The notes below the pieces were generated by a model that worked only from the letters and a program-made list of their open reading frames with translations, made no database searches and was not told the origin of the DNA. Positions 5,801 through 56,790 of a stretch of DNA of 64,000 nucleotides are shown piece after piece; within the stretch, counting starts at the first letter, position 1, and each line of letters opens with the position of its first letter. The stretch is from IMG/VR virus record IMGVR_UViG_3300032030_000007, positions 1 to 64,000 of that record; one strand, 5' to 3'. Made by a program: the position numbers and the translations under genes. Source of the DNA: a virus (taxonomy: Duplodnaviria; Caudoviricetes).

Positions 5801-5814
5801 AAATTTTATTTTTT

Positions 5815-5846: not shown

Positions 5847-5864
5847 ATTCAAAAAAGGGAATCA

Positions 5865-11306: not shown

Positions 11307-11310
11307 TAAA

Positions 11311-15624: not shown

Positions 15625-16554
15625 TTAAAAATTCAATTTAAGTTGATTTGTATTTAATAATTTAGGCTTCATTTCAATTATTGTATCAGTTGGTTTTATA
15701 TTGCTAATCAATAATGGAGACTTTGGATCATGTATTTTAAAGTTCTCATCACATTTATCAAAATCTGCTGATGCATAACAATATTTGCATTTATGAAGAC
15801 AAGTATTATAAACACCTATGCACGTATTTGGATAACATAAGCATCCCCATGCCATTTCTGTTCTATTTTGCTTAGGATAGATTCCCATTAAATTCAAAGC
15901 ATGTTCATCGAGGCATCCTGTAACTTCAACACCTTCTAAATCTTTGAATTGTAAACCATTACCACATGTCTGTAATTTGAAATCATATCTATTGCAAATA
16001 TCAAGCATATTCATTATAAGAACTTTCTTTTGAATATTATTAAGTTCAATCATCTCTGGTAAATGTCTTTTGACTTTTTCATAAGGAGATACAAAATTGA
16101 CTACAACTCTATCTGTATAATTATGTAACTCTTTGCATATATTTTCAAATCTTTCAAGTGTCTGAACTTCTTCAAAGTCTTTACAATAAAAGATAGGGTC
16201 AAATCTCCATATTACTTTTTCTTTTCCATATCTTTGAGAAAGTTCTTTGAATGTATAAATAGATTGTTCAAAACTTGGTACTCCAGGTTCAATATCTTTT
16301 CCGTAGCCTGTTATTGTGTAATGAAATATACTTGGAAATTTATCTGTGATATTCTTTAAGTCATGAAGTATTGGAAGATAATCTTTTGAACACCACATAA
16401 TTCCTTCTATATGCTTATTGTCTAATATGATCTTATGAACCATATTAGGGGCAGCAGGATTTCTAAACATTACAAATCCTTCATTAAATCTATTAATTAA
16501 CCAGTCAGAATAAAATGCTGGAATATCTGTTCTAAAATCAATACTAAGTATCAT
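15625..16554 (-). CDS. DUF1848-family protein (radical SAM-like, C-terminal CxxxCxxC)
   Basis: RTDIPAFYSDW, WRFDPI, IGVYNTCLHKCKYCYA. Confidence 0.8.
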   Translation of the reverse strand: MILSIDFRTDIPAFYSDWLINRFNEGFVMFRNPAAPNMVHKIILDNKHIEGIMWCSKDYLPILHDLKNITDKFPSIFHYTITGYGKDIEPGVPSFEQSIYTFKELSQRYGKEKVIWRFDPIFYCKDFEEVQTLERFENICKELHNYTDRVVVNFVSPYEKVKRHLPEMIELNNIQKKVLIMNMLDICNRYDFKLQTCGNGLQFKDLEGVEVTGCLDEHALNLMGIYPKQNRTEMAWGCLCYPNTCIGVYNTCLHKCKYCYASADFDKCDENFKIHDPKSPLLISNIKPTDTIIEMKPKLLNTNQLKLNF

Positions 16555-16944
16555 ATTGTATCTTATCAAATATACTTATAATTTACTCCAAAATAAAATA
16601 TCTAATTGTCCATCAACTGAATGTTCCCAAAGTTCTGGATCATCATCACACCAAATACACTCTTCAAAAATACTATCAGGAATATGTCGTCGCCAAAGTA
16701 CAGTATTTTTCATATTAATAATGTTCTAAAACTTCTTTTCTAATTTTTCTGTATTCTTCTTCCTAATAAGAACCCAATAAAAAATGTTAGAATACAAATT
16801 ATAATGTATAATATAATCATAAAGCTTTATAAAATCTCATTAATAATTTAACGATAACTTTATCTTCTAATTTACCAGTTGCTAAAGTATCCGTAGGAAA
16901 AGATTCAATCATTTTCTTAGTTACTTCTTTCCATTCTTTCTTTG

Positions 16945-32384: not shown

Positions 32385-34343
32385 TTATTTTGTTTCTGTG
32401 AACGGAGTTCCAGCTTGGAATGGATTTCCACCAAATGGATTATCTCCAGATGCTCCGTTGTTTCCACCAAACATATTATTGAACATATTTGGATCTACTT
32501 GAGGATTTCCATTTGCATCCTTAGGCATATTCTCTTGATAGATACGACTGATGATAGGATTATAAACTTTCTCAAGTTCGTCTTTCTTTGCAAACATCTC
32601 AGAATCATTTTTTTCATCAATAGCTTTTTTAGCAGCGTCAACTAAATCCTGAAGTTGTTTCTTTTCATCATCAGTAAACTTATCCTTAAGATTATCATCG
32701 CTTAATGAACGTTCAACAGAATAAATATATCCCTCAGCAGCATTCTTCTTATCAAACTCTGCCTTCTTAGCAGCATCCTCGGCTTTATGTTCTTCAGCTT
32801 CCTTCTTAATACGTTCAATTTCTTCTTTAGATAATGTATTGGAATCATTAATCGTAATATGTTGTTCCTTTTGAGTTCCAAGATCCTTAGCAGATACAGT
32901 CAATGTACCGTTAGCATCAATATCAAATGTTACTTCAATCTGTGGAACACCACGTGGAGCAGGAGCAATACCATCAAGATTAAACATACCAATTTGTTTA
33001 TTATCCTTACTCATTGGACGTTCACCCTGAAGAACTACAATTGATACCGCAGGTTGATTATCTACAGCAGTTGTAAATATTTGTGATTTCTTTGCAGGAA
33101 TTGTTGTGTTAGCTTCAATAAGCTTACCCATCATATTACCATTAACCTCAATACCCAATGTAATAGGAGTTACATCAAGAAGAACTGTATCTGATTCCTC
33201 AGGATTAACAATTGCCTTAGCCTGAATTGCAGCACCAAGTGCAACAGCTTCATCAAAGTTAGATGACTTATTCAACTTATCACCGAATGTATTCTTAAGA
33301 GCTTCTTGAACTTGTGGCATACGAGATGAACCACCTACAAGAAGAATATCAGTAATATCTGCTGATGTTTTCTTTGCCTTTTCAAGTGCACGTTTTGCAA
33401 TTTCAATTACTCTATCAGTGAACTTCTTTGTCATCTGTTCAAACTTTGCACGAGTAAGAGTTGTTACAAGCATTTGAGGAACACCATCCATAACAGTAAT
33501 ATATGGAAGATTAATCTCTGTTGATGTTGATGTTGATAACTCACACTTTGCTTTCTCTGCAGCTTCAACCAAACGAGCATATGCCATAGGATCTTTACGT
33601 AAATCTACATTAGCATGATCCTTCATAAACTCATCTGCAAGCCAATCTACAATTTCATTATCGTAATTTTGACCACCAAGGAATACATCACCATCAGATG
33701 CAAGTACTTCAACAATACCTTGAGATACTTCACAAATTGATACATCTTCAGTACCACAACCAAGGTCATTTACAAGTACAAGACGTTCCTTATCTTCTTT
33801 ATCCATACCTGCTGCAAGAATAGCTGCAGTTGGCTCATTGATAATACGATGCACTGTTAAACCAGCAAGTTCACCAGCAAGCTTTGTTGCTTTACGTTGA
33901 ACATCATTGAACCATGCAGGAACTGTGATAACACAATCCTTAACTTCTTCTCCATAATAATCTGAAGCAACCTTTGCAAGGTCTGTTAAAATATATGAAG
34001 AAATCTCTTCAGCAGAATAATCTTTTCCTTCAATTCTAACATAAGGTTTATTGTTCTTGTTGACTACTTCATAAGTAATCATTGTAAGCATCTTTTGAAC
34101 ATCAGAATCTTGCCATTCAGCACCCATAAATCTCTTAATGAAAGATACTGTATTCTTAGGATTCATAATCATACCACGTTTAGCGGAACCTCCAATTTTA
34201 CGTTCATCGCCTTTAATAAAAACTACAGATGGTGTGGTACGAGAACCTTCTGCGTTTGCAATAACTTTAGCTTGTCCGCCTTCAATAATAGCGACACAGC
34301 TGTTACCTGTTCCCAGGTCAATACCAAATACTTTGTTGCTCAT
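32385..34343 (-). CDS. dnaK: Chaperone DnaK (Hsp70)
   Basis: [53 protein letters not shown]. Confidence 0.97.
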
Positions 34344-34810: not shown

Positions 34811-35172
34811 ATCTTTTCTGGAGTTGGTCTACCATCTAACCAATCTTCAGTATATTTTTCATATTCTTCTTCAGACATATCTCCTTTTATAAATATCTTA
34901 TAAAGATTATGAAATGTATTTTCAAATGTCTCTAATGAACTTTTATCATAGTCTTCATATGGATCACCTTTGAATATTGGTTCATTTTCAGCTAATTCTT
35001 TACTACATATAATAGCCTGTACAGATTCATCATTTGATATTCTCCAATATCCTCTTGCTTGTTGTTCATTAAGAGTTATATACATTGGATAATATAACTC
35101 ATATTCATCATTTGGCATACATACATAAAATACTTTCATAAAATCAATTTCATTAATATATTTATAATTCAT
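34798..35172 (-). CDS. Hypothetical protein
   Basis: ORF; likely start MNYKYI. Confidence 0.6.
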   Translation of the reverse strand: MNYKYINEIDFMKVFYVCMPNDEYELYYPMYITLNEQQARGYWRISNDESVQAIICSKELAENEPIFKGDPYEDYDKSSLETFENTFHNLYKIFIKGDMSEEEYEKYTEDWLDGRPTPEKIWEL

Positions 35173-35968
35173 ATTTTTTATGGAAATCATTATACAGATG
35201 CATGAATTCTGATGTAAAGAAACGTGTAACATCATGAACTAATTGATCATCTATTTCCATTCCTTCAGTAGCACATGCTAATGCTCCAGCTAATCCACCT
35301 TCTGTATCAGTATCACCACCTAATGATATTGCTTTACGAATACAGTCTTCATAAGAATTTGAATCTCTCCAACATATCAATACAGCAGGAACTGAATTCT
35401 GACATGTACATTCAAATTTATGTACTCTTTTTAATTCATCATAAGATTTTGAAAGATCATATCTAAATTGTCTGCTAATATATTTCAATATATCTTTTTT
35501 AGTATTGCCTTCCTTAGCAAAGAATATTGCAGCTGCTATAGCTTGTGCACCTTTAATTCCTTCAGGATGATTATGAGTTACTTCAGCAGATATCTTAGCT
35601 AACTCCATGCATTCATCAATATTATTTGCAACATAAGCAACTGGTGGAACTCTCATAGCAGATCCATTACCAAATGAATTATATGGATCTCTACGTTTTT
35701 CATTAATCCATTTCTTAAATGTTGTCTCAAGATCATAATGCCATAATCCATAATTGTATTTATTACCCCAATAATGGAACTTATCAATTAACGCATCCTT
35801 TGACCTATCAGTATTCATAAGCCAATCAGCAACAGCAATCATACAAATAGAATCATCAGAAGGATGAGTTCTATCATACATAAATTCAAAATTATAATCC
35901 TTAGTTGGTTTTTGTGCATAATACTGTCCAATACTATCACCAACAATTTGTCCAATTATACCTTTCAT
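35162..35968 (-). CDS. ADP-ribosylglycohydrolase (DraG/ARH family)
   Basis: GDSIG, SDDS, GNGSAMRV, THNHPEG, GGDTDT. Confidence 0.92.
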   Translation of the reverse strand: MKGIIGQIVGDSIGQYYAQKPTKDYNFEFMYDRTHPSDDSICMIAVADWLMNTDRSKDALIDKFHYWGNKYNYGLWHYDLETTFKKWINEKRRDPYNSFGNGSAMRVPPVAYVANNIDECMELAKISAEVTHNHPEGIKGAQAIAAAIFFAKEGNTKKDILKYISRQFRYDLSKSYDELKRVHKFECTCQNSVPAVLICWRDSNSYEDCIRKAISLGGDTDTEGGLAGALACATEGMEIDDQLVHDVTRFFTSEFMHLYNDFHKKYEL

Positions 35969-36012: not shown

Positions 36013-36807
36013 TTAAAGTTCATATTTATTGTGAAATTCATTTAATATATATATAAATTCATCAGGTATATATCCATCTTCACATAATTTATATAAAAAT
36101 TCATCATTAATACTAGTTTCTTCTTTAGCATTACATATTGATCCAGCTATACATGCTTCAGTATCGGCGTCTCCACCTAGACTTACAGCCTTACGAATAC
36201 AATCTTCATATGATGTACTTTCATACCAACAAGTTAAACATACAGGTATGGATACTTGACAAGTACAATTAAATTTATGCGTATTTTTTAAATCCTTATA
36301 TGATTGTAATTTATAATCTGTATTATTTAATATATAATTAATGATTTCATCTTTTGTTTTACCATTACGATATAACCATATTGCAATAGCAACTGTAATT
36401 GCACCTTTAATACCTTCAGGATGATTATGAGTAACTTCTGCTGATGTTTTTGCTAAGTTAATACATTCTTCCAATGAATTTGCAACCCAGCCTACTGGAG
36501 ATACTCTCATAGCAGAACCATTACCATAAGAATTATATGGTTCACGTGTATCTGAATTAACCCAATTTTTAAATTTTGGTGCATACCCATAATTATATTT
36601 ATTACACCAATATTTAAGTTTATTGATTAATTCATCTTTTGAACGATCTGTATTCATTAGCCAATCAGCTACTGCTATTGTACATGTACTATCATCAGTT
36701 ACATGTGATTCATTCGTTATTAATTCAAAATTATAATTATGTGTTGAATGAAATTCATAATTTTGCCCAATAAGATCTCCAACAACTGCACCTATAATAC
36801 CTATCAT
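36013..36807 (-). CDS. ADP-ribosylglycohydrolase (tandem paralogue)
   Basis: GDLIG, TDDS, GNGSAMRVSP, THNHPEG, GGDADT. Confidence 0.92.
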   Translation of the reverse strand: MIGIIGAVVGDLIGQNYEFHSTHNYNFELITNESHVTDDSTCTIAVADWLMNTDRSKDELINKLKYWCNKYNYGYAPKFKNWVNSDTREPYNSYGNGSAMRVSPVGWVANSLEECINLAKTSAEVTHNHPEGIKGAITVAIAIWLYRNGKTKDEIINYILNNTDYKLQSYKDLKNTHKFNCTCQVSIPVCLTCWYESTSYEDCIRKAVSLGGDADTEACIAGSICNAKEETSINDEFLYKLCEDGYIPDEFIYILNEFHNKYEL

Positions 36808-38031: not shown

Positions 38032-38524
38032 TCTTTATATTGACCCATTGACAGAATTTTCCAAATGTATCATGTATTGCAACTTTTGGAAGATATTCAT
38101 TAATGATTAGACAAAAACATATCTTACCTTTATGTTTTACCATCTTAAACTCATTTCCATTAGCATCAGCAAAAGAAAACGAATTATCATCAGGCATTTT
38201 CTTTAATATGTTTTTTGATTGATTAATGTAATGAGATGGCAACATTGATAACATAGCTGTATGTTCATCAATAGATTTATTGTCTAATTTACGAGCTAAA
38301 TATCTTTTGCCTTTATGCTCCCATTCTTCATCTGTTTCTGCAAACTGTTTATTTACAATCATACAAGCATTCTGATAAGTGACAATAGTCATGTCAGAAT
38401 CATCATATTCATAAACACGTCTATCATCACCATCTTTCCAAGGAGACATTTGTAATAGATATTTATCCATTACTTTATATATGTTTCCAGTGTTATTAGA
38501 TTGCAAATATGTACTATTATCCAT
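37988..38524 (-). CDS. Hypothetical protein
   Basis: ORF. Confidence 0.65.
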   Translation of the reverse strand: MDNSTYLQSNNTGNIYKVMDKYLLQMSPWKDGDDRRVYEYDDSDMTIVTYQNACMIVNKQFAETDEEWEHKGKRYLARKLDNKSIDEHTAMLSMLPSHYINQSKNILKKMPDDNSFSFADANGNEFKMVKHKGKICFCLIINEYLPKVAIHDTFGKFCQWVNIKNVKPIFNETDKKYI

Positions 38525-39138
38525 TATTTCATATATAAATTATTTTCTTTTATAATGTTATATACTCCCCTATTAAAATATAGTTCAACGTTTTTGTTTT
38601 GTTTAATAAAATTTCTAATATCTGTAGAATGCATTTCAAATCCTGGCATAAGATTAACATAAGCCTTGCATTTGCAAATTTGACTAAAATATTTTTCAAA
38701 TTCTGGTTTGATTGTTCCAACAATTATCATTCTATCAATATACTTTGATAAAATTTCTGTTGAATTATACCAAGATCCATATAATATCTCATGATAAGTT
38801 TCTTCAGTCAAAATCCAAAGAAAATCTTTTCCTATAGATTTATCATTATCATTAGAAAGATATTCTAACATATCATATGTATATGTCCAATCATGCTTAA
38901 ATTCAATATCATTTACGATTACATTAGTATCTTCTGTTGATAATGGTTCAAACATTAATTTTGACATATAATACCTATAAAGAATCGGAGTTGAATCTTT
39001 CTTATTTGGATTTTGCTTAGTTGGAATTATATGAATGCTATTAATTGATTTTGATATATCTGAATTAATAACACTCATAATAACATTAGCATGACCAATA
39101 TGTGGTGGATCAAATGAACCTAAAAATATTGCATTCAT
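38524..39138 (-). CDS. nadD: Nicotinate-nucleotide adenylyltransferase
   Basis: GSFDPPHIGH (HxGH), YTYD, HSTDIR, V..II.ENNLY. Confidence 0.85.
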   Translation of the reverse strand: MNAIFLGSFDPPHIGHANVIMSVINSDISKSINSIHIIPTKQNPNKKDSTPILYRYYMSKLMFEPLSTEDTNVIVNDIEFKHDWTYTYDMLEYLSNDNDKSIGKDFLWILTEETYHEILYGSWYNSTEILSKYIDRMIIVGTIKPEFEKYFSQICKCKAYVNLMPGFEMHSTDIRNFIKQNKNVELYFNRGVYNIIKENNLYMK

Positions 39139-40022: not shown

Positions 40023-40083
40023 AACTAAAATATATTTAAAATATTAAAACTATTTAAATATAGTTCAAATAATATTAAAATTC

Positions 40084-40112
40084 AAAAATGGCAGATCTTA
40101 AGATCTGCCATT
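40084..40112 (-). terminator. Intrinsic terminator after the Cys-rich gene
   Basis: AATGGCAGATCTTAAGATCTGCCATT palindrome plus T-run. Confidence 0.75.
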
Positions 40113-40132
40113 CTTAAATATATAATTGATTT

Positions 40133-42991
40133 TTAACCTACTTGTGGAATTACATAGCCTTGACATGGACAATATTGATCACAATCACAGTGTGGATAGT
40201 ATGTCTTTTCATTACAAGAACATGTATCAACTTTTGACTGACATAAGTGAGCTGTGCAATTACCTACATTTGTATTACATGTACATGCATCATATGAAGG
40301 ACATACTGTATTATATGTGTTACAGTCACATTGACATGAATCTTTTACTGTTGTATTATGTGTGTTACAATCGCATTGACACGAATCTTTTACTGTTGTT
40401 CCTTGTGTGTTACAGTCACAGTTACAGCCAGTTCTTGCATTTGAACAGTGTCCTCCACAGTTCGAACATTGTGTATAACAGTTACATGAGTCAGAACAGT
40501 GTCCAGCACAATTTGAACATTGGGTATAACAGTTACATGAATCATTACAGTGTCCAGCACAGTTTGAACATTGGGTATAACAGTTACATGAATCAGAACA
40601 GTGTCCAGCACAGTTTGAGCATTGGGTATAACAGTTACATGAATCATTACAGTGTCCTCCACAATTTGAGCATTGAGTATAACAGTTACAAGAATCTCCA
40701 CAGTGTCCAGCACAATTTGAACATTGGGTATAACAGTTACATGAATCATTACAATCTGGAGAACATCCTACAACATTACAATCACAGCTACATACATCAT
40801 TACAAGAACAACCTACATATCCTCTATCTGTACAGTCGGGATCGCAAGTAGCATCGCATATGCATTTACGCTCTGCATTACAAAAACAAACACAACCACC
40901 TTCATAATTGTAATCATGCGTTAAACAATCATCATTTGTTACTGCATTGCAATCACATCCGCATGGATCATGACCAGTACAATCACATGAACAATCGCTA
41001 TGACTAGCACACTGTTCTCTATAATCTATACATTTCCAATTCGCATGTTCTCCATTACAACTAGAATTATTGTACTGATCATAAGGTAAACAATTATGAC
41101 CACATGTTTTATATCTACAAGAATCACCTGATCCTGATGTTTGTGAATCACAATAACAGTGCCAATCTTTACAATCAGCACATTCTGCAGTGCAGGAACC
41201 ATTATAATGATTATCAGCACATGTATTAGAATAACAATAACCACTACTATAATTATTTTCTTTACATTCACAAGATTGTGTATGACAAGTACATGCCGCA
41301 TATCCATGGCATCCGCATCCTGTCCAACTTTCGCATAAACAATATCTTGGGTCATCCTTATAATATGATTTACATGTACTATATTGTGAATTATTACATC
41401 CATCACCATCACAAGTACAATAAGTTCCATCATTATTACAATCACAATAACAGTCATCTTTATATGTACGTGTATGATTATTGCAATCGCATTGACATGA
41501 ATCTTTAGTTGTACGAGTATGATTATTACAATCACATTGACAAGAGTCCTTCGTTGTTGTATTATATGTATTGCAATCACATTGACATGAATCTTTTACT
41601 GTTGTTCCTTGTGTGTTACAGTCACAGTTACATGCACTTGTTGTATTAGAACAATGACCAGCACAGTTCGAACATTGTGTATAACAGTTACATGAATCAT
41701 TACAGTGTCCAGCGCAGTTTGAACATTGAGTATAACAGTTACAAGAATCATTACAGTGTCCAGAACATGTGCTATCATTATTACAGATACAGTCCGCACA
41801 TTTTGTATCACACGTATTATTTTGGTTACAGTCGCATACACATACGACATGTGATGCACATGCTGTACCATAAGCAGCACAGTGTTTATCACATGGTGAT
41901 GTGCTACCGCTTATTTCTTGTCTTACAAATGTTGTATTGACATGACATTGACATTTATCATATTGGTTACAGTCACAATAACAATATATGTCATCTTCGA
42001 CAATAGTAACATCTTTTATTGTACCTGCATTACCAGTCATTCTAAATGATACAGAACTAGAAGTATTGTTTGCTGTAGTTTTTGTTACTGTAATTCTGTC
42101 TGCATTACCTGACATAGGAGATACAGTATAGTTGTTTGAGCTTAAATTAGAAATTGTATATGATGTGTTACCTATCAATGACACATCTATGCCAACAGAC
42201 GAATTTGCTGCATTTACAATACCTGATTTTTCTAATGACAATATTATATCGTTAGGATGTGGATTAGCTCCTTGAGATACAGACACAGTAATAGATGTAT
42301 CATTCTTCTTTTCTTTAAATATAATATTTCCGCTTCTTGCAGCTCCAGCATTACCTTGTACCGAAACAACAACTGATTTAGATCCAGCTCTGTCTTCAGA
42401 TTTACTTAGTGCTACCCATGCAGGTTTGCTTACTAATGTCCATCCTGTGTATGATTTGATTTTAAGCGTCTGAGTTGCAGGAGCATCATACCCATATTCA
42501 TATTGATTATAATATGGAACTAATCTAATATAACCAGCATTATCTCCAGAAGTTACACCATCATTATGTTGATAGTAATAAACCTTGATAAAGTGAGAAC
42601 CTGCAGTAGGAACAGTAATATTTATTATATCATCTGTTGTACCTGACATTTTCTTCAATAATGGGTTTTCATCTGTTGTATCTAATTTACATATACCAAG
42701 AAAATCATTTGGACTTTCTGAACTAACAATTAAATCTAACTGTATTACTTGATTATTAGTATATGTCTTAAAGTTAACAAATGCAATATTGGGTGTTCCT
42801 TCTCCTCGTCCAGCTAACTTATAATAAAATTTATTATTTTTTGTTACGACTGTAGTAGTACCGACAACAGTACCTGATTCATAAAGCCAAGATTCTTCAG
42901 TTAATGTTTTTTGTATACCATAATCGAAAGATAATGATGTTGGTGCAATATTAAACTTAAAAAACCCTCCTAATATACGTCTTCTTAACAT
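40133..42991 (-). CDS. 952-aa protein: N-terminal beta/BACON-like domains plus ~610-aa Cys-rich repeat region
   Basis: BACON-like IKSYTGWTLVSKPAWV...RSGNIIF; repeats CNDSCNCYTQCSNCAGH x8 and NTxxTTxKDSCQCDC x6. Confidence 0.85.
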   Translation of the reverse strand: MLRRRILGGFFKFNIAPTSLSFDYGIQKTLTEESWLYESGTVVGTTTVVTKNNKFYYKLAGRGEGTPNIAFVNFKTYTNNQVIQLDLIVSSESPNDFLGICKLDTTDENPLLKKMSGTTDDIINITVPTAGSHFIKVYYYQHNDGVTSGDNAGYIRLVPYYNQYEYGYDAPATQTLKIKSYTGWTLVSKPAWVALSKSEDRAGSKSVVVSVQGNAGAARSGNIIFKEKKNDTSITVSVSQGANPHPNDIILSLEKSGIVNAANSSVGIDVSLIGNTSYTISNLSSNNYTVSPMSGNADRITVTKTTANNTSSSVSFRMTGNAGTIKDVTIVEDDIYCYCDCNQYDKCQCHVNTTFVRQEISGSTSPCDKHCAAYGTACASHVVCVCDCNQNNTCDTKCADCICNNDSTCSGHCNDSCNCYTQCSNCAGHCNDSCNCYTQCSNCAGHCSNTTSACNCDCNTQGTTVKDSCQCDCNTYNTTTKDSCQCDCNNHTRTTKDSCQCDCNNHTRTYKDDCYCDCNNDGTYCTCDGDGCNNSQYSTCKSYYKDDPRYCLCESWTGCGCHGYAACTCHTQSCECKENNYSSGYCYSNTCADNHYNGSCTAECADCKDWHCYCDSQTSGSGDSCRYKTCGHNCLPYDQYNNSSCNGEHANWKCIDYREQCASHSDCSCDCTGHDPCGCDCNAVTNDDCLTHDYNYEGGCVCFCNAERKCICDATCDPDCTDRGYVGCSCNDVCSCDCNVVGCSPDCNDSCNCYTQCSNCAGHCGDSCNCYTQCSNCGGHCNDSCNCYTQCSNCAGHCSDSCNCYTQCSNCAGHCNDSCNCYTQCSNCAGHCSDSCNCYTQCSNCGGHCSNARTGCNCDCNTQGTTVKDSCQCDCNTHNTTVKDSCQCDCNTYNTVCPSYDACTCNTNVGNCTAHLCQSKVDTCSCNEKTYYPHCDCDQYCPCQGYVIPQVG
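40448..40753 (-). repeat. Six in-frame 51-bp tandem repeats (17-aa Cys unit)
   Basis: C(N/S/G)DSCNCYTQCSNC(A/G)GH x6 with synonymous variation. Confidence 0.9.
41654..41755 (-). repeat. Two further 51-bp Cys-unit repeats
   Basis: CNDSCNCYTQCSNCAGH x2; adjacent 45-bp repeat block. Confidence 0.85.
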
Positions 42992-43019
42992 TTAAGTATA
43001 TTACATATATTTTTATAAT

Positions 43020-44546
43020 TTATTTTAATCCTAACCAAATTAAAATATTATTAAAGAATCCACTAGTTTCTTCTTTTTCTATTTTTTCAACTTTATCATT
43101 GCATTGACATGTACTTTGTTTACAATTACATTTCTGTTGTTGATTATTTTGATTTTGTTGATTAATTCTATTTTGTCTATTTCTATTTACATTATTTCTC
43201 CACCTTCTATACATATCTAATACACCACGATGAGCTTTTCTCATTTCCCATTCTTTAATCCATATATTACAATTACGAAGGTCATGACACATCTTGGCTC
43301 TAATACATGATGGCTTAATTGGACAATCATTACATATATCGTAATCTTCTACATAATCTTGGAATTTTCTAATTTCTGTCATGTCTTTCATTTCAGGATT
43401 ATCTACATGACCCCAGAAATGATCTTCAGAATAGTGTTCACAAACTCCAATATCACCTTGTGTACCAATTACAACAGCTTGTCCATGATCAATCATACAA
43501 TGCGTTGCACGTACATATGTTCCACGATCACGACCATGTAAATATCCATAATGATCTAATACTTCATCAATTTCTCTTAATTTAGTATATAATAATTCAT
43601 TTTCTTCTGCAGTTCTAGGATTATCGTCATCTTCAAATATTGGCCAACAATATGGGGCAATATTTTTATGATTACCAAATCGTGTATAAAGCTCTTTAAT
43701 CAATTTTTTAAGATTTTCAGCATTTTCAACACAAGTATTCATACGAATAGATATGTTCATACCCCAATCAGCCATCATTTGAATATTGTCCATAACAATC
43801 TTATATGGGCTTTTACCTTTTACATTTTTATAATTCTTAATCTTATTGTATTCTTCTTCAGTGCCATCAAGAGTGATTTGACCAGATCTCAAATGCCATA
43901 AATCACGATATTTGTCTAATTTTTCTTTTTTAAATAAAAAACCATTTGTAGTCATACTAGATGCATAATTAAATCCGGCGTCTTTAACTATTTGGCAAAT
44001 AATATCTATACAATGTTCTCCAACTAATGGTTCACCACCAAACCAACGTAATTGAATTTCACGTCCGTTTTTCATAGCGTTTTTAACAATCCAATCACCA
44101 ACTTTTCTTGCTGTTTCTGCAGTCATTGGTTTTTGTGGACGTCCTGCTTCATAACAATATGAACATCTTGCGTTACAAGCCATTGTTGAAAATATTGTAA
44201 ATTCATAAATACGACCTGATTTAAGATATGATTCATTCTCACAACTTGGACGACCATTTAACTTTAATTTTTCTTGAGCTGCGTGTTCATCATAATTTTC
44301 ATTTACTAAGAAATAATTATTCCAAAGCCATTGAACATAGTCAACATTAAGATCATCATATATCTTATTCCATTGTTCATTAGGAATCCATATAAATGAA
44401 CGTGTTAATTCATTATGAATAGCTTTACCGTTATCAACATCTTCAATAACAAGGTATTTCATTAAACGTACTGATTGATTTTCATCTCTTGTGTTTTGCC
44501 CAAGAAATTGTAAATACTTTTGATTTGATTTTCTAATTATATTCAT
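43020..44546 (-). CDS. Radical SAM/SPASM-domain maturase
   Basis: CNARCSYC, FGGEPL, TTNG, ITLDG, SPASM C..GDIGVC..CNDCPIKPSC....C. Confidence 0.9.
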   Translation of the reverse strand: MNIIRKSNQKYLQFLGQNTRDENQSVRLMKYLVIEDVDNGKAIHNELTRSFIWIPNEQWNKIYDDLNVDYVQWLWNNYFLVNENYDEHAAQEKLKLNGRPSCENESYLKSGRIYEFTIFSTMACNARCSYCYEAGRPQKPMTAETARKVGDWIVKNAMKNGREIQLRWFGGEPLVGEHCIDIICQIVKDAGFNYASSMTTNGFLFKKEKLDKYRDLWHLRSGQITLDGTEEEYNKIKNYKNVKGKSPYKIVMDNIQMMADWGMNISIRMNTCVENAENLKKLIKELYTRFGNHKNIAPYCWPIFEDDDNPRTAEENELLYTKLREIDEVLDHYGYLHGRDRGTYVRATHCMIDHGQAVVIGTQGDIGVCEHYSEDHFWGHVDNPEMKDMTEIRKFQDYVEDYDICNDCPIKPSCIRAKMCHDLRNCNIWIKEWEMRKAHRGVLDMYRRWRNNVNRNRQNRINQQNQNNQQQKCNCKQSTCQCNDKVEKIEKEETSGFFNNILIWLGLK

Positions 44547-44748
44547 ATGTATTTATATATTTAAGATATTTATATCTATTAATTAATTATAAAAAAAATA
44601 CTATACTTGGATTTAGTATTTTATGATAAATTATTTACTTATAAATAAAAATAGATAAATAATGAACCTAAATTCAATATATATTTAATAATATATCTTT
44701 CTTAATAATTAGTTTATTTAATAATACTAAAAAATGTTGAACTTTTGT

Positions 44749-45657
44749 TCAACCCTTATTAATATCAATAACTACAGGTAATCCTTTTCGTTTATATTTT
44801 GTTCGTCTTATACGGCCAATAACATCATCAACAGTATGATAAGTTACTTTATCATTATTTACATCATATTTCTTATGTAGTTCATCCATTGCAATCCGAT
44901 ATGCTTCTGGATGTTTTCCTCGATATTCAAGATATGTCTGAATGATATCATCAACTTTCTTATAAGCATCTACATTTTTATCTTTAGCAAATGCTGGAGC
45001 AATCTGCCCCATGTCACCAAGATCATTAACACCATTACCATCTGTTGGACGAATACCTAATGCATAATCAAGAGCTTGTACTTTATTAGTGTTTAATACT
45101 CCAGATTCATTTTGATAATAATCTCTAATATATTGAGCTAACTCATAAACTTCATGTTTCCAAAGACCTCCAATTGGATTTAAATCTGCAACATCTCCAT
45201 GAATTGTAAAGAATCCAAGATAATGCTCAGTAAGATTATCAGTATCCATTACTAATCCCTTGAAATAATTTGCAAGATCATAAAGATATATCATACGAAG
45301 TCTAGCCTTAATATTTCCCTGTCCAATAGTTGTTGGAAGATGACGTTGAGAACATACACCTTTCATAAGAATAAACTCATGCTGTAAATTCTCAGTCCAA
45401 TATTGTCCTTCTTTACAGAATGCTTTCATACAAGCATTAGCTGAATTATTTTCATCAATACTATTTGATGTACATGGAAGACTTACACCAAAAAATTTCA
45501 AATCAGGGTTTCTTCTTTCAACTTCTGAACAAATAGCAGCAGTTACAGTAGAATCAATTCCACCAGAAATACCAAGAATCATTGCCCAAAGATTATTATC
45601 TTCAAGATACTTCTGAGTTTCTTGCACCATTGTTTCAAAAACTTTTGCGTAATTCAT
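44749..45657 (-). CDS. nadE: NH3-dependent NAD+ synthetase
   Basis: GISGGIDS, GNIKARLRM, TDNLTE..LGFFTIHGD, PIGGLWK. Confidence 0.93.
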   Translation of the reverse strand: MNYAKVFETMVQETQKYLEDNNLWAMILGISGGIDSTVTAAICSEVERRNPDLKFFGVSLPCTSNSIDENNSANACMKAFCKEGQYWTENLQHEFILMKGVCSQRHLPTTIGQGNIKARLRMIYLYDLANYFKGLVMDTDNLTEHYLGFFTIHGDVADLNPIGGLWKHEVYELAQYIRDYYQNESGVLNTNKVQALDYALGIRPTDGNGVNDLGDMGQIAPAFAKDKNVDAYKKVDDIIQTYLEYRGKHPEAYRIAMDELHKKYDVNNDKVTYHTVDDVIGRIRRTKYKRKGLPVVIDINKG

Positions 45658-46007: not shown

Positions 46008-46334
46008 TTAATAAGTTGCTTTAAAATCAATACCATTATTTGGAAGATACTTACAATACCAATAATTATATCCGTTGTCTTCAATATGTTTGTATACTTT
46101 AACTTTAGGATTATAGTCTAATTGTATGATAGATCCAATTTTTGGTTTATTTGGTGTCTTTTTAATAATCTGTTCATTAATGCATTCTTTTTCATAAACA
46201 AATATATCTTTATCATCAATTAAATATTCTGTAATATTATGACCAGATCTAATCAATTTAAGCATTCGTTGTGCTAAATCATTTTTATCTGTACCTAGCC
46301 AACTTAAAATCGTAGATTTTGTTATCATATTCAA
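46008..46334 (-). CDS. Hypothetical protein
   Basis: ORF. Confidence 0.6.
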   Translation of the reverse strand: MNMITKSTILSWLGTDKNDLAQRMLKLIRSGHNITEYLIDDKDIFVYEKECINEQIIKKTPNKPKIGSIIQLDYNPKVKVYKHIEDNGYNYWYCKYLPNNGIDFKATY

Positions 46335-47584
46335 TTAATATATTTTAATCCATCTTCACCAGGTTCTCCTTTTGGATCTCCATGGTTTAATGAGATAGGA
46401 ATATTCAGTTCATAACATGCATGATTGAACTCCTGATTATCTCCCATATGTTTTCCAAAATCATCAGAAATCTTAATTGTAAGATACCAAGACTGATTAG
46501 AATTCATACGGCAACGAGACATCTTCATAACGATATTCTCTGCATCATATTTTGTTCCATCAGGAGCATATACATCACATGTAAGATTTGTTCCAATTCC
46601 AAATGAACACTTGATTCCTCTTTCCTTACAATATTGTAAGATCTTAACAGCTTTTGGAAAATCAAGTGCATTAGAGAATACGATTGTTTTTGTATGATAA
46701 TCAATTCCTTTATTTATATAGAAATTAATTGTCTTATCAGTAAATTCATATTCATCTCCTGAATCCTGACGAACACCATCAAAAAGTTTAGCCTGTTTTA
46801 ATGAGAAGTTCTTGAAGAACACATCTGTTGTGTATGTATCTGAAAGAGCAATACCAAGATCTCCATCATATACATCTACCCAGTTTTCAAGAGCTATATA
46901 ATTTGCAGACTTATATCCATACTGAGCACCATGGAACATAAACCACTCGTGAGGGTGAGTACCAATTGGCTTCATATCATACTTCATTGCAAAATGTACG
47001 TTTGAAGTACCTACACAAGTCTTAGAATTTTGTTTCAAGTATTCACAAACCTTATCTTGAACTTCATAATTGAAACGGCGGCGTGTTCCAAATTCTGAAA
47101 ATAGCATTCCCATAGAATTCGCAAGATTAACCTTTGCTTCAAGCTTAGACATTGTAAGCTCCCAGTTAATAGGTTTATCTTCATTATTTACCTCAGGAAT
47201 AGCATACATACAAGGAATTTCATACAAAGAAGCCTTATAGCATTTATCTGTTACATCCATACAAAGTACACCTTCATCATCAAGATATACTCTAATCTTA
47301 TTAAATTCAAATCGGAATGAATACAACCACTCCCAATAATACTGTGCAATAAAATCTACCCTGTGTGAAGTAAGTAACCAATTAAGCTCAGGAATTGTAA
47401 GTTTAGTATTATTACAAATATCCCTAAGCATCATTTTAAACTTCTTCAGAAATTTTGGAGTACGTTTAATTTTATTCCTATCCTTAAATGTAAATGTACA
47501 TTCAGCATCAGGAAATTTCTTCATATAAGCATACGATGTAGTAAACTTATATAGATCTGTATCAAGTATTGAAAATTTCATCAT
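46331..47584 (-). CDS. pncB: Nicotinate phosphoribosyltransferase
   Basis: LDTDLYKF, EFGTRRRF, GTSNV, GTHPHEW, ALSDTY, GVRQDSGD, FGIGTNL, KISDD.GK. Confidence 0.95.
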   Translation of the reverse strand: MMKFSILDTDLYKFTTSYAYMKKFPDAECTFTFKDRNKIKRTPKFLKKFKMMLRDICNNTKLTIPELNWLLTSHRVDFIAQYYWEWLYSFRFEFNKIRVYLDDEGVLCMDVTDKCYKASLYEIPCMYAIPEVNNEDKPINWELTMSKLEAKVNLANSMGMLFSEFGTRRRFNYEVQDKVCEYLKQNSKTCVGTSNVHFAMKYDMKPIGTHPHEWFMFHGAQYGYKSANYIALENWVDVYDGDLGIALSDTYTTDVFFKNFSLKQAKLFDGVRQDSGDEYEFTDKTINFYINKGIDYHTKTIVFSNALDFPKAVKILQYCKERGIKCSFGIGTNLTCDVYAPDGTKYDAENIVMKMSRCRMNSNQSWYLTIKISDDFGKHMGDNQEFNHACYELNIPISLNHGDPKGEPGEDGLKYIN

Positions 47585-47589
47585 ATTAT

Positions 47590-47657
47590 TTAATATATAC
47601 TTTATGAATATTTAAAGCTTATTTTTATAGTTAATATATACTTTATGAATATTTAAA
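47590..47657. repeat. 27-bp direct repeat between pncA and pncB
   Basis: TTAATATATACTTTATGAATATTTAAA at 47590 and 47631. Confidence 0.8.
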
Positions 47658-48366
47658 TTGCTTTAATATTGTCATGAGAATTAATGAAATCATTAAGAGC
47701 AGTACCTCCATCAATTGAAACAGTTCCATTCATAAGAACACTTATATTGAACTTCTTCCAGTGATTCATAAGGTTCTTCATAGTTTCCATTACACAATAA
47801 TCACCAGCAATACCGCATACTACAATATTGTTATTGATAATTCTGCAACCTGAAGAAGATTCACAATTTGCAAAATAACAGTTCTTTACATGAGGTGGAT
47901 CATTAGGATGCAAGTGATGGAATGTTGCAAGATGCTCAAACGCGCCATACTCTTCACGGTCAACTACTGTACCCTTATCAACAACAGTAAATGGTATTCG
48001 CATTTCAATAAGACCATCATAAAGTTCTTTAGCAATCTTTTCGCCATCAGATCCCTGAACACAATGCGCAGGCCATTGACCACCATTTTCCTTAAATGAC
48101 ATATGTTTCTTTGGATGATGATCACGAGTCAAAATAACCTGGTTAATCTTATTGCGATTTGCTTTGATGTAATCCAAAATTGGCTTATTGATATTTTCTC
48201 CACCAGGTACATAAAGAGCTCCATTTGGATCACCAAAATCAAATTGGTCATCTACAATAATAACACTAATTTGATTATCCAATTTAGAACCAGTGTTCTT
48301 TACTTTAAACTTCTTTGCATTGTTCTTACGAACATCATTCTTAATGTTTTTCTTGTCTGTATACAT
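47653..48366 (-). CDS. pncA: Nicotinamidase (isochorismatase family)
   Basis: VDDQFDF, GALYVPGG, TRDHH, WPAHCVQGS, GIAGDYCV. Confidence 0.92.
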   Translation of the reverse strand: MYTDKKNIKNDVRKNNAKKFKVKNTGSKLDNQISVIIVDDQFDFGDPNGALYVPGGENINKPILDYIKANRNKINQVILTRDHHPKKHMSFKENGGQWPAHCVQGSDGEKIAKELYDGLIEMRIPFTVVDKGTVVDREEYGAFEHLATFHHLHPNDPPHVKNCYFANCESSSGCRIINNNIVVCGIAGDYCVMETMKNLMNHWKKFNISVLMNGTVSIDGGTALNDFINSHDNIKAI

Positions 48367-49193: not shown

Positions 49194-49199
49194 AAATTG

Positions 49200-49582
49200 T
49201 GGACCCAGACAGATTCGAACTGTCGTCTTAATAACCGTCATACTAAAACTTGTTACATGCTTCTTAGAAGTTTCTATCTTCAAAATATCTAGTTTCGTAC
49301 TATTCCAGAAAACCAGAAAACTTGGAGGTACACTTGAATTGAATAGCCAAAAGCTCCTTCCGCTATGTTTGTGAGACTTCTGTTGCCCGACCCGTAGGTT
49401 CTCACTGCGCCGGCTATGCTTATTTATAACCTAACTAATTAAAATAGTATCCCTGAGGGATTAAGCAGCCATCCTGTAGAAAGTATCTTCTTCAGCATTT
49501 ATTGTTTTTGATTCTTTAACGACATAATCAAGTCGACATGATTTTAATACTCAAATTACTAATCAAATACCAAAATGAGCCC
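49200..49582 (-). ncRNA. ssrA: tmRNA (383 nt), tag (A)AEEDTFYRMAA*
   Basis: Acceptor GGGCTCA/TGGGTCC-A with G3.U70; T arm GACAG-TTCGAAT-CTGTC; tag ORF 49496-49461 after AATAAAT ending in AA-stop. Confidence 0.9.
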
Positions 49583-50612: not shown

Positions 50613-51287
50613 TTATATATTTTCAAATAAGTTATAATATTTCTTATTTTCTGTATTTTCAATTTCTAATATTAAGCTATCTAATGCTAATGGATTGATT
50701 AATGTATATATGTTAGTATCATAAAGTTGATTTAATCTACCAAACACTATATCGCAGCAAACAAAAGTTTCCTGTTGAAACTTTATATAATGTTCCATTG
50801 TTTCTCTATTACATATTCCATATAATTGAGCACCTGCGTATTGGCCATTTTTATTTGTATAATATCCTTTATTATTTTTGTTATATGTAAAATGATCTGA
50901 TGAATAAAATCCATATTTAACAATATCTGCATTGTTTGGATAATTGTTCAAATATGTTTTAATATAGTTTATGTCATTAATAAAAGCACAATCATCCTCC
51001 ATTATTAATACAGAATTTGCTCCAGATTCATATGCATGTATAACTGCTGTATAATGATCATATGATGCTCCAAGAAAATGTGTATAATGATTAAAATTTG
51101 ATTTATCTAAACTTGCACCAGGTAAATTAAATTCATCTAACTTAAGTATATTTAAATTACTATAATCTGCCCCATATATGAATTCAAAATTAATGCCTAA
51201 TAAATTCATTATTTTTCTGATACGATTTTGTTTTTCTATATTACGACAATAACTGATACAATATACTTTATCAAATTTAATATTCAT
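50613..51287 (-). CDS. Glycosyltransferase family 25 (third paralogue)
   Basis: FDKVYCIS, GASYDHY, VLIMEDDCAF. Confidence 0.75.
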   Translation of the reverse strand: MNIKFDKVYCISYCRNIEKQNRIRKIMNLLGINFEFIYGADYSNLNILKLDEFNLPGASLDKSNFNHYTHFLGASYDHYTAVIHAYESGANSVLIMEDDCAFINDINYIKTYLNNYPNNADIVKYGFYSSDHFTYNKNNKGYYTNKNGQYAGAQLYGICNRETMEHYIKFQQETFVCCDIVFGRLNQLYDTNIYTLINPLALDSLILEIENTENKKYYNLFENI

Positions 51288-55405: not shown

Positions 55406-55506
55406 ATCTTTATATTTTATTTGTTTGATAATTTAATATAGATCATTATCAAAAAAATTCAAATATAATAAAAAAATGGAACTATAAATTAATCTAATTC
55501 TATTTG

Positions 55507-55577
55507 TAATCCCAATAGGAATCAAACCTATACCTATTCTTTAGGGGAGAATTATGCATTCATTACACCATAGGATC
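55507..55577 (-). tRNA. tRNA-Arg(CCT), somewhat degenerate
   Basis: GATCCTA/TGGGATT acceptor; ATTCT-CCCCTAA-AGAAT; T loop TTTGATT; C33 instead of U33. Confidence 0.65.
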
Positions 55578-55947
55578 ATACATCACCTCTTAATTTCAAT
55601 GTATTATATAACTCTTCGATATGATCAAATAAAGTTTTGTAATATCTTCCATAAGTAGTTTTCCAAAACCCATCTTTATCATATTCGTATCTTGTTATAT
55701 ATTCATAAAGATTTTCTCCTTTATTCAACAAATCATAATAATACTTAATATCTTTTATAGTCCAATATAGCATATCATAATTTCCGTGTTCTATTGGACG
55801 ATCCCACCCTTCAGTATGAAATAACAAAATATGTAAAGCATTTCTATATTTGTAAATACCACCACGTTGAATACCAAATTTTTTGCAATTACGATTTTTT
55901 GGTATTTTATTCCAACCAAATTTTCGTTTGTCTTTTAATGCTTTCAT
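55576..55947 (-). CDS. Hypothetical protein inside the tRNA array
   Basis: ORF. Confidence 0.6.
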   Translation of the reverse strand: MKALKDKRKFGWNKIPKNRNCKKFGIQRGGIYKYRNALHILLFHTEGWDRPIEHGNYDMLYWTIKDIKYYYDLLNKGENLYEYITRYEYDKDGFWKTTYGRYYKTLFDHIEELYNTLKLRGDV

Positions 55948-55971
55948 AAATTGAATATTTAAATATTTACG

Positions 55972-56054
55972 AGCTTATACTGAGAATCGAACTCAGATCT
56001 CCACCCAAGATGGTGTTCTCCATCGTCTGTGATTTACCATTAAACTATATAAGC
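55972..56054 (-). ncRNA. tRNA-like RNA with elongated non-canonical anticodon arm
   Basis: GCTTATA/TATAAGC acceptor, D and T arms intact; GATGG-AGAACA-CCATC in place of a normal anticodon arm. Confidence 0.7.
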
Positions 56055-56059
56055 ATATG

Positions 56060-56241
56060 TAGGGATGATGGGATTCGAACCCACGCTATGTTTAAGGTGG
56101 TACATAAAACGCGCTTCCTTACTCGAGTTTCACCTCTTTTCAGTGCTTCCGCAAACTTAACTCCTGGATTTCTCCTTCAAGACATTTTCCACCACGACAC
56201 TCGTTTTATCGCGCTCTGTCCAAGTTCTGAGCTACATCCCT
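56060..56241 (-). ncRNA. 182-nt tRNA-like RNA with ~105-nt insertion replacing the anticodon loop
   Basis: AGGGATG/CATCCCT-A, GCTC..GAGC D arm, GTGGG-TTCGAAT-CCCAT; insertion closed by ATAAAACG/CGTTTTAT. Confidence 0.75.
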
Positions 56242-56250
56242 ATATATAAG

Positions 56251-56326
56251 TGACCGCAGAGGGATTCGAACCCCCGACTTCTTCGTTCGTAGCGAAGTGC
56301 TCTAAAATCCACTGAACTATGCGGCC
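56251..56326 (-). tRNA. tRNA-Arg(ACG)
   Basis: Full cloverleaf; CTTCG-CTACGAA-CGAAG. Confidence 0.92.
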
Positions 56327-56333
56327 AATAATG

Positions 56334-56408
56334 TACTCCGGATGGGACTCCAACCCATGACCTGAATATTAGAAGTATCCTGCTCTATTGCAACTGAGCT
56401 ACCGGAGC
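56334..56408 (-). tRNA. tRNA-Arg(TCT)
   Basis: Full cloverleaf; GGATA-CTTCTAA-TATTC. Confidence 0.88.
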
Positions 56409-56415
56409 ATAATTG

Positions 56416-56491
56416 TGACCCTGGAGGGATTCGAACCCCCAACCTGAAGGGTAGAAGCCAACTGTTCTAAATTCCGTTGAACTACAGGGCC
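56416..56491 (-). tRNA. tRNA-Arg(TCT), anticodon stem with two U.U mismatches
   Basis: GTTGG-CTTCTAC-CCTTC; intact acceptor, D and T arms. Confidence 0.8.
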
Positions 56492-56635
56492 AAATGCGGC
56501 TACGCAATTTATTTTTACAAGGAGCCGTAACCTATCTCCTCAACCTTTATCCTTTGGCATCTGCAATTGCATTGTACACTACAATATACAAATAAAGCTT
56601 TAATTGAGAACCTTGCAAGTAACCTAATCAAGCAT

Positions 56636-56698
56636 TCAGTGGATTCGAACCAGCATCCCCTCTAACGGGAGGTATTTTACCCTTAAACTATCGTAGTC
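56636..56698 (-). pseudogene. tRNA core remnant lacking the adjacent 3' acceptor strand
   Basis: TAGTTTAAGGGTAAAA, CCTC-CCGTTA-GAGG, TGG-TTCGAAT-CCA. Confidence 0.5.
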
Positions 56699-56718
56699 TT
56701 TTTCGGCATCCTCAATTG

Positions 56719-56790
56719 TACCCCCGGTAGGATTCGAACCCACATCTTATGATCCGTAGTCACACGTTCTTTCCTTTGAACTACGGGGGT
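56719..56790 (-). tRNA. tRNA-Arg(ACG)
   Basis: Full cloverleaf; TGTGA-CTACGGA-TCATA. Confidence 0.92.

Follow-up and report, generated by a model that had tools for sequence, protein, structure and literature searches.

A 64,000-nucleotide stretch of the genome of a giant tailed phage from the gut or rumen (positions 1 to 64,000 of the IMG/VR virus record IMGVR_UViG_3300032030_000007; hereafter, the window) carries, side by side, a gene for a radical S-adenosylmethionine (SAM)/SPASM enzyme, P0001, and a gene for a large Cys-rich repeat protein with BACON domains, P0002. We propose that the two probably form an enzyme–substrate pair, in which a maturase of the type of CteB and CrpC would staple the Cys tract of its neighbor repeatedly by thioethers. 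The parts of this proposal differ in strength: that P0002 is the substrate of P0001 we regard as highly probable, and that the product is a thioether, as with the known ranthisynthases, seems by analogy a fairly probable outcome. The elements of the locus, from its upstream to its downstream edge, are as follows.

44736-44753, minus strand: hairpin between the nicotinamide adenine dinucleotide (NAD) synthase gene and the P0001 gene, at the upstream edge of the unit
43020-44546, minus strand: radical SAM/SPASM maturase P0001, 508 amino acids (aa); Pfam Radical_SAM, 2.8e-14
44217-44546, minus strand: P0001 N-terminal domain, aa 1-110, resembling a RiPP recognition element (RRE; RiPP, ribosomally synthesized peptide with post-translational modification); AlphaFold2 (AF2) model, structural alignment to CteB and TigE, starts of the NCBIfam alignments
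43527-44210, minus strand: P0001 radical SAM core, aa 113-340, CX3CX2C at C124/C128/C131; invariant Cys, PF04055 at residues 120-285
43257-43514, minus strand: P0001 SPASM domain, aa 345-430, seven invariant Cys; sequence alignment and structural alignment to the SPASM domains of CteB and anSME
43023-43136, minus strand: P0001 C-terminal tail, aa 471-508, disordered Cys motif, then a short helix at the end; AF2 model
42992-43019, minus strand: intergenic gap of 28 bp between the P0001 and P0002 genes
40133-42991, minus strand: P0002, the presumed substrate, 952 aa
42482-42991, minus strand: P0002 domain 1, aa 1-170, jelly-roll beta-sandwich behind an M-L-R-x-R N-terminus; AF2 model
42272-42469, minus strand: P0002 domain 2, aa 175-240, BACON or immunoglobulin (Ig)-like; Pfam BACON at residues 184-240
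41981-42259, minus strand: P0002 domain 3, aa 245-337, BACON fold; structural match to 3zmr_B
40136-41983, minus strand: P0002 Cys-rich repeat region, aa 337-952, 22% Cys, with a C-x-C-x-G-Y-type end motif
41654-41755, minus strand: 17-aa repeat, copies 1-2, aa 413-446
41453-41632, minus strand: 15-aa repeat, copies 1-4, aa 454-513
40448-40753, minus strand: 17-aa repeat, copies 3-8, aa 747-848
40337-40426, minus strand: 15-aa repeat, copies 5-6, aa 856-885
40080-40119, minus strand: terminator-like hairpin, 18 pairs and a T-run, directly 3' of the P0002 gene

A preliminary description of this locus, drawn up from the letters alone, had proposed a two-gene unit closed by a terminator, and both the coordinates of the open reading frames (ORFs) and the hairpin at 40119-40080 support it. 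Because hairpins stand on both sides of the two genes, the pair looks like a transcription unit of its own; terminator-like sites numbered five, against 0.9 expected in shuffled sequences. No ORF of at least 20 aa that might serve as a separate short precursor gene is present in the flanking intergenic DNA (i.e., the 200-bp region upstream; the 28-bp gap is too small), and a plus-strand ORF at 40126-40851 was rejected as a gene, being an antisense artifact of the Cys repeats. A DNA similarity search with the locus returned no match among 50,697 phage records, and a protein search with the enzyme returned only 11 matches, all of them distant (at most 30.5% identity).

That P0001 is a radical SAM enzyme with a SPASM domain, as had been claimed from the outset, is borne out by Pfam, NCBIfam, a profile search of the PDB and the predicted fold. 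The score against PF04055 is 54 bits (cutoff 29.5; Pfam also reports Fer4_12), the fold matches those of CteB, anSME and MoaA, and C124, C128 and C131 are invariant in 26 homologs aligned at 33-68% identity. These residues form the CX3CX2C motif; in such enzymes it lies in a partial TIM barrel and binds the [4Fe-4S] cluster that cleaves SAM. Seven further Cys (350, 369, 405, 408, 414, 420 and 426) are invariant in the same homologs and place P0001 among the SPASM proteins, whose motif reads CX9-15GX4C, gap, CX2CX5CX3C, gap, C and binds two auxiliary [4Fe-4S] clusters. G364 stands four residues before C369, and the spacing of the middle element in P0001 is CX2CX5CX5C, not ending in CX3C. On this sequence evidence, P0001 is predicted to hold the radical SAM cluster together with two auxiliary clusters in its seven-Cys SPASM domain.

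Among curated families, the best NCBIfam model for P0001 is TIGR04463, the family of CrpC (1.6e-34), aligned from residue 34 to 415 over model positions 5-391 of 438, and the next are those for FlmE/OhkG, Clo7bot, the geopeptide maturase, PapB (NF047865, 1.8e-25, 89.9 bits against a cutoff of 340) and CefB; the QhpD model TIGR03906 follows at 2.5e-12. The best five models all describe radical SAM/SPASM peptide maturases, most of them acting on Cys-rich peptides, and every score lies far under its curated cutoff. Since the score against TIGR04463 is 119.4 bits and the cutoff of that model is 525, P0001 constitutes a separate subfamily whose nearest relative is TIGR04463, and not a member of it. 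Nor does it belong to the CXXX-repeat systems, as TIGR04115 is absent from its 25 best matches, all of which have E-values of 1.3e-7 or lower.

Structural comparison leads to the same relatives. In a profile search of the PDB with the alignment of P0001 homologs, the best match is CteB (5wgg, 3.8e-17), and CteB is again best when the AF2 model of P0001 (mean predicted local distance difference test score, pLDDT, 87.3) is aligned to known structures with VIA-align (Z 23.5 over 368 residues, model 28-447 on chain 1-448). Because this alignment takes in the RRE of CteB, an RRE-like N-terminal domain, which the preliminary description had suggested looking for, is present in the model of P0001, and its predicted role is to recognize a segment of the substrate. 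The domain is modeled with strands at residues 32-37, 40-45 and 51-55, followed by helices (pLDDT above 90); only CteB (chain residues 1-448) and TigE carry the structural alignment into it, and the NCBIfam models of RiPP maturases align to P0001 from residue 32-34 onward. At the other end of the enzyme, the Cys motif that had been noticed in the tail is indeed there (residues 474-487), in a segment modeled with pLDDT below 50 (residues 471-495) and followed by a predicted helix at 493-504. Such CxC-rich C-terminal tails, each closed by a short amphipathic helix, are common in the clade of P0001; they range from a single motif to five repeats that together exceed 100 residues. They could serve for docking, provide an additional metal site or mimic the substrate.

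The presumed substrate is composed of two very different parts. P0002 has three Cys in its first 340 aa and 138 in its last 625, and its overall Cys content (14.6%, against a median of 2%) is the highest among window ORFs of at least 100 aa. Its last 612 aa consist of 22.2% Cys, 11% Asn, 9.6% Asp, 9.5% Thr, 9.2% Ser and 4.2% His, and are rich in Gly and Tyr as well. Two related blocks contain a 17-aa unit repeated eight times (starting at residues 413, 430 and 747-832) and a 15-aa unit repeated six times (454-499, 856 and 871), and the commonest spacings between Cys, in mixed units, are 1 and 3 residues. A composition count, a unit search and Tandem Repeats Finder, which recovered the arrays from the DNA at 85-91% identity, agree with all that had earlier been said of the repeat numbers and the Cys-rich composition.

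The N-terminal part (residues 1-345) yields an alignment-based AF2 model with a pLDDT of 85.5 that is entirely beta, with a jelly-roll (about residues 10-170) ahead of a pair of Ig-like domains. Residues 37-162 of the jelly-roll match the C-terminal domain of VesC (Z 10.7) and the MAM domain of PTPmu (Z 8.1). For the second domain, the Pfam BACON model (PF13004) scores slightly under its cutoff (5.9e-5, 23.4 bits against 25, residues 184-240), and the third superposes closely on the BACON domain of the Bacteroides ovatus GH5 enzyme BoGH5A (3zmr_B 42-131; Z 11.7, root-mean-square deviation 2.0 Å over 86 residues); precomputed matches to PF13004 or PF19190 exist for many P0002 homologs. The BACON-like N-terminal domains that had been read from the sequence are therefore confirmed, on a fold match stronger than the sub-threshold Pfam score, with a jelly-roll preceding the two BACON/Ig domains. 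Other searches were less specific: the best matches of the N-terminal part in a viral structure library are phage BACON-domain and tail proteins, generic in nature, and Foldseek with the three-domain model found only generic multi-Ig proteins at low TM-scores. PHROGs contains no family for P0002, for its N-terminal part, or for the substrates with a short N-terminal domain described below (type B) and their small neighbors; a feature search of the ESM Atlas with the Cys-rich region gave no usable match, and no NCBIfam model matches P0002 at E up to 1, the CXXX-repeat target models included.

The combination of these N-terminal domains with a Cys-rich C-terminus is a property of a whole family. 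A word-based search yielded 22 P0002 homologs and an exhaustive profile search added eight whose match spans the entire N-terminal profile; every homolog found turns Cys-rich at residue 300-400 (P0194 weakly). A Cys-rich C-terminus occurs in 21/21 matches to the full N-terminal profile (again weakly in P0194, at 2.8% Cys overall). The match list also contains 129 multi-BACON proteins, and no Cys-rich stretch occurs anywhere in these (0/129); a profile of P0002 residues 167-330 retrieves multi-BACON proteins by the thousands. The length and sequence of the repeat unit vary widely among homologs. M1, R3 and G25, the first two within the N-terminus M-L-R-x-R, are invariant in 22 of them; the last Ig strand passes into a conserved junction, C-x-C-D-C-N, and the C-terminus ends in a conserved motif, C-x-C-[D/N/Q/H]-[G/N]-[Y/F]. 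We count 29 or more substrate proteins and several hundred enzyme homologs from metagenomes of the gut and rumen. About 350 further relatives of P0001 (30-39% identity) occur in metagenome-assembled genomes (MAGs) of gut and rumen Clostridia and Bacteroidales. One metagenomic protein, the 430-aa P0151, is a chimera that joins the three-domain N-terminus and a short Cys tract to the Lys/Glu-rich tail and helix of P0068, an enzyme from a locus with one Cys-rich protein and two enzymes; it looks as if the substrate gene, through its Cys repeats, had recombined with the Cys-rich tail of the enzyme gene downstream of it, with a deletion as the result.

The adjacency of the two genes is conserved, and the pair recurs in many phages unrelated to each other. 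Ten further long contigs with the three-domain protein were examined (a 22,420-bp ENA contig, L001, L002, L003, L004, L005, L006, L134, L137 and L138), and in 10/10 the gene for that protein is directly adjoined by one to three radical SAM/SPASM genes, the reverse of what the preliminary description had named as telling against the pairing (i.e., homologs that usually lack such a neighbor). Gene order runs both ways among these contigs, enzyme before substrate or substrate before enzyme, and the surroundings differ: a NAD+ salvage island (the window, the 22,420-bp contig, L001 and L138), a DnaB/NrdD replication region beside giant BACON/Big_2 proteins (L005 and L006), or the region from tail fiber to endolysin (L003 and L137). 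In the NAD island of the 22,420-bp contig the order is enzyme, enzyme, a 1087-aa Cys-rich protein, enzyme and a 785-aa protein, i.e., three paralogs with, apparently, two substrates.

Sister enzymes accompany Cys-rich tracts on other N-terminal architectures as well. In L133, L135 and L136 they stand beside proteins with a short N-terminal domain (about 60 aa) and 200-400 residues at 20-24% Cys, the genes for which directly follow Peptidase_S74 tail-fiber genes, and in L007 the neighbor is a giant protein of Ig repeats whose end is Cys-rich. L007 was the only informative hit in a scan of IMG/VR with the enzyme profile; most hits were distant radical SAM enzymes (24-37% identity) that, read with the standard genetic code, lacked large Cys-rich neighbors. 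When 25 enzymes were placed in a maximum-likelihood tree, the ones beside large Cys-rich proteins formed a single clade (support 100/99), apart from three bacterial enzymes, of which two (L116 and L069) have short Cys-rich peptides upstream. Substrate types are intermixed within the phage clade, with at least three switches, and the two-enzyme loci hold two old paralog lineages. The enzymes of L116 and L069, from Bacteroidales MAGs and about 33% identical, directly follow genes for acidic Cys-rich peptides of 55-58 aa (L116 5707-5883, L069 about 5800-5978), an arrangement of the ordinary RiPP type that is likely the cellular counterpart of the phage system. Six of the relatives (L003, L133, L134, L135, L136 and L137) need TAG to be read as Gln to keep their genes open; the phage of the window uses the standard code.

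The pattern C-x-x-[DNEQ], of the type known from CrpA, exceeds its shuffled expectation, by a factor of 1.7-3, in 27/29 family members, and in P0002 itself there are 63 occurrences where shuffles give 37.4 +/- 4.4. Relative to the composition of the region, the position three residues after Cys (Cys+3) is enriched in Asp (2.8x), Gln (2.25x), Glu (2.24x) and Asn (1.95x), with Thr and Ser at about 0.2x. A rule that the acceptor is Asp, Asn, Glu or Gln at Cys+3 is nonetheless weak, because only one in four Cys in the dominant 17-aa unit of the window conforms to it.

In the cycle proposed here, P0001 would cleave SAM and abstract a hydrogen from an acceptor residue near a Cys, most likely Asp, Asn, Glu or Gln three residues on, after which the Cys sulfur would be joined to the acceptor carbon as a ranthionine-type thioether. 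Repeated many tens of times along the repeats of P0002, such crosslinking would produce a rod or module that is densely stapled, insensitive to redox conditions and resistant to proteases, with a jelly-roll and two BACON binding domains as its carrier. The stapled protein would probably be exposed extracellularly, either as part of the virion or after release at lysis, in the anoxic gut or rumen, where disulfides would be unreliable.

How the enzyme would find its substrate can be narrowed somewhat by the relatives. Because related enzymes serve substrates with different N-termini, recognition is probably through the Cys tract or the conserved end, beyond any N-terminal leader. By analogy with CrpA, the M-L-R-x-R N-terminus was considered as a leader bound by the RRE, and rejected; still conceivable, this idea is weakened by the close relationship (98/98) between the enzyme of L137 and those of L135 and L136, whose substrates have unrelated N-termini. 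A feature shared by the Cys tracts, or the C-x-C-x-G-Y-type end motif, may be the better candidate. A complex prediction with P0001 residues 1-470 and P0002 residues 1-345 scored 0.01, against a mark of 0.32, and we count this neither for nor against binding.

Several observations weigh against the thioether proposal, and it must be compared with other explanations for the same pair of genes. The most serious of these, which we judge unlikely on balance, is that P0001 acts on P0002 without forming thioether crosslinks (e.g., through oxidation of Cys to formylglycine, the anSME reaction, epimerization, C-C or C-O crosslinks, or methylation), or that the tract serves mainly to bind metal or Fe-S clusters and the enzyme makes few modifications or helps to load the clusters. 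Because all of the curated-family scores of P0001 are so far below their cutoffs, the chemistry of CrpC cannot simply be transferred to it; and anSME, which oxidizes Cys or Ser and does not crosslink, fits the core nearly as well as does CteB (Z 21.7 vs. 23.5), aligning from residue 112 onward. The acceptor rule is not uniform within the window, the motif counts include repeat copies, which are not independent observations, and His at Cys+3 is enriched on a par with Asp (2.95x), which, like the CxC and CxCH sequences, fits metal binding too; the authors who described CrpA also suspect a metal-related role for that protein (PMC13692751). Against this explanation stand the RRE-like domain, which P0001 has in common only with CteB and TigE, the predominance of maturases of Cys-rich peptides among its best five models, the seven-Cys SPASM domain shared with CteB and CrpC, and the enrichment of C-x-x-D/N/E/Q, which the phage family shares with CrpA. 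Moreover, metal binding and thioether formation can coexist.

It is also conceivable, though improbable, that P0002 is a multi-core precursor, in which the N-terminal domains act as a giant leader and the modified repeats are cut into small Cys-crosslinked peptides with antibacterial or signaling activity that are freed at lysis. Repeated units of 15-17 aa do look like those of multi-core RiPP precursors, and the bacterial relatives of the enzyme in L116 and L069 adjoin short Cys-rich peptides. In two relatives, a gene for a papain-like peptidase (Peptidase_C1, with a faint match to C39_2) lies directly upstream of the BACON/Cys-rich gene (L003 7415-7996 and L134 1959-2513), and this peptidase could process the Cys-rich protein there; however, the window lacks this gene, and no peptidase gene adjoins the pair there or in most of the relatives examined. 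The repeat units, moreover, vary in length and sequence within a single protein and lack regular cleavage spacers, the end motif conserved across the family suits an intact domain better, and the same Cys module terminates giant Ig-repeat proteins and proteins next to fiber genes. Finally, the adjacency might have no functional meaning at all, the enzyme acting on a host protein or a metabolite and P0002 folding alone with disulfides or metals. The pair does stand in a region of auxiliary metabolic genes, but an accidental neighborhood would hardly survive inversion of the gene order, changes of surroundings and changes in enzyme copy number in 10/10 further contigs, nor would a single enzyme clade be expected to track Cys-rich tracts on three unrelated N-terminal architectures; we consider this explanation very improbable.

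The closest published counterpart to the proposed pair comes from an archaeon: In Methanococcus voltae, CrpC (TIGR04463) installs ranthionine crosslinks on CrpA, as demonstrated by mass spectrometry, alkylation and desulfurization (PMC13692751, September 2026). CrpA is a 28.8-kDa protein in which a 17-residue Cys motif occurs ten times, with a C-X-X-Q/D motif, a 47-residue leader-like N-terminus and an N-terminal domain, and CrpC, which combines an RRE with a seven-Cys SPASM domain, carries a total of three [4Fe-4S] clusters (PMC13692751). The phage pair resembles this system in that an enzyme with an RRE-like and a seven-Cys SPASM domain stands beside a protein-sized putative substrate with Cys repeats of about 17 residues in its C-terminal part and a C-x-x-D/Q-type motif; in the window and the ten further contigs alike, the enzyme is encoded beside a large Cys-rich repeat protein, which is the substrate by inference. 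P0002, however, has 952 aa, which makes it about 3.5 times as long as CrpA, and 138 Cys fall within its last 625 aa; it bears a jelly-roll and two BACON domains where CrpA has its leader-like N-terminus and N-terminal domain, and the phage locus is viral, with no CrpB-like partner identified. The words ‘phage’, ‘viral’ and ‘BACON’ are absent from the main text of the CrpA paper (PMC13692751).

Other characterized systems share single properties with the phage pair. CteB, the SCIFF ranthipeptide maturase (PDB 5wgg and 5why), is the closest solved relative of P0001 by profile and by fold, despite an identity of only about 15%; in the SPASM domain of CteB, one auxiliary-cluster site is open and binds substrate Cys, and the enzyme forms a Cys thioether. 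Its substrate, CteA, has about 45 residues, six Cys and one known crosslink, compared with the 100-kDa multidomain P0002. PapB with PapA (freyrasin) and NxxcB form beta-carbon thioethers between Cys and Asp or Asn, repeated at a short fixed spacing (C-X3-D in PapA, N-x-x-C in the NxxcB type), but this spacing differs from that in the phage protein, and these enzymes act on short precursor peptides and belong to bacterial secondary metabolism, and the PapB model reaches only 90 bits with P0001. The CXXX-repeat type (TIGR04115/TIGR04114) differs in that P0002 has CxC-type repeats and a jelly-roll/BACON N-terminus. A protein substrate is found in the maturation of quinohemoprotein amine dehydrogenase: As PMC13692751 summarizes, QhpD is a radical SAM/SPASM enzyme that forms Cys-Asp/Glu thioethers in the protein subunit QhpC, not in a natural-product peptide. 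QhpC is nevertheless small, receives three crosslinks and is part of a redox enzyme, without repeats or a phage context.

For short natural-product peptides, thioether crosslinking by radical SAM enzymes belongs to textbook chemistry; to our knowledge, its use on whole proteins has been shown only for QhpC and the archaeal CrpA. The preliminary description had called the phage protein a RiPP-like substrate much larger than any known. Because CrpA and QhpC are published, a protein-sized substrate is no longer unprecedented, so that part of the claim does not stand; what survives is that P0002 is much the longer protein, has far more Cys and is encoded by a phage. New are that the system is viral, that its presumed substrate is so large and so loaded with Cys, that the heads are of the BACON type, that N-terminal architectures are swapped as modules and that some loci hold several enzymes. 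We found none of these in the literature, where our search returned no paper on phage radical-SAM enzymes with Cys-repeat proteins. If the proposal is correct, thioether crosslinking extends to viruses and to a multidomain protein of 100 kDa whose C-terminal region contains 138 Cys, and the phage locus offers a functional setting that CrpA lacks, i.e., heads of a carbohydrate-binding type (BACON), frequent tail-fiber neighbors and anoxic sample habitats. Phages would then have a new route to harden or diversify the structures that contact the host, and protein engineers a genetically encoded, repeat-based stapling system.

Where the product would act is less secure. A location of P0002 on the virion or at the surface, suggested by the BACON heads and the tail-fiber neighborhood in relatives, is a tentative assignment that could well fail: the module follows tail-fiber genes (Peptidase_S74 or Phage_fiber_rpt) in relatives, whereas the pair in the window is flanked by NAD+ salvage genes and not by structural ones, which counts against such a role. 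More speculative still, and in our view rather doubtful, is the full scenario in which radical-SAM enzymes of gut and rumen phages turn the Cys-rich end of a surface protein (a virion fiber, decoration or adhesin) into a rod held by tens of thioethers, a substitute for disulfides that is independent of oxygen and redox state, and in which the rod is a portable cassette placed on jelly-roll plus BACON, short N-terminal or Ig-repeat heads. Were that scenario true, there could be up to about 60-80 crosslinks per chain; no known protein would carry more RiPP-type modification, and this would be the first virion component of its kind to be crosslinked by an enzyme.

The NAD+ salvage island into which the pair is inserted occupies 38524-39138, 44749-45657, 46331-47584 and 47653-48366 of the window and encodes a cytidylyltransferase-like candidate for nicotinamide mononucleotide adenylyltransferase, NAD synthase, nicotinate phosphoribosyltransferase and an isochorismatase-type nicotinamidase; L001 and the 22,420-bp contig show synteny with this arrangement, and L138 does so in part. 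About 6 kb from the P0002 gene, the window encodes full-length phage DnaJ (30316-31398) and DnaK (Hsp70, 7.7e-215; 32385-34343), and the 22,420-bp contig and L138 likewise have an Hsp70 gene close to the pair. Two tandem ADP-ribosylglycohydrolase paralogs (35162-35968 and 36013-36807) are also encoded near the pair in the window. Elsewhere in the window are an RNA ligase (8682-9515), a DUF1848 protein (15625-16569), three GT25-type glycosyltransferases (10548-12084 and 50613-51287), and a 482-aa protein with TROVE (Ro60-like) and vWA domains (22431-23879) at a local GC peak of 37%, compared with about 27% elsewhere. The window further contains a phage transfer-messenger RNA gene and five tRNA-Arg genes (49199-49582 and 55506-56790), the latter with the anticodons CCT, ACG, TCT, TCT and ACG.

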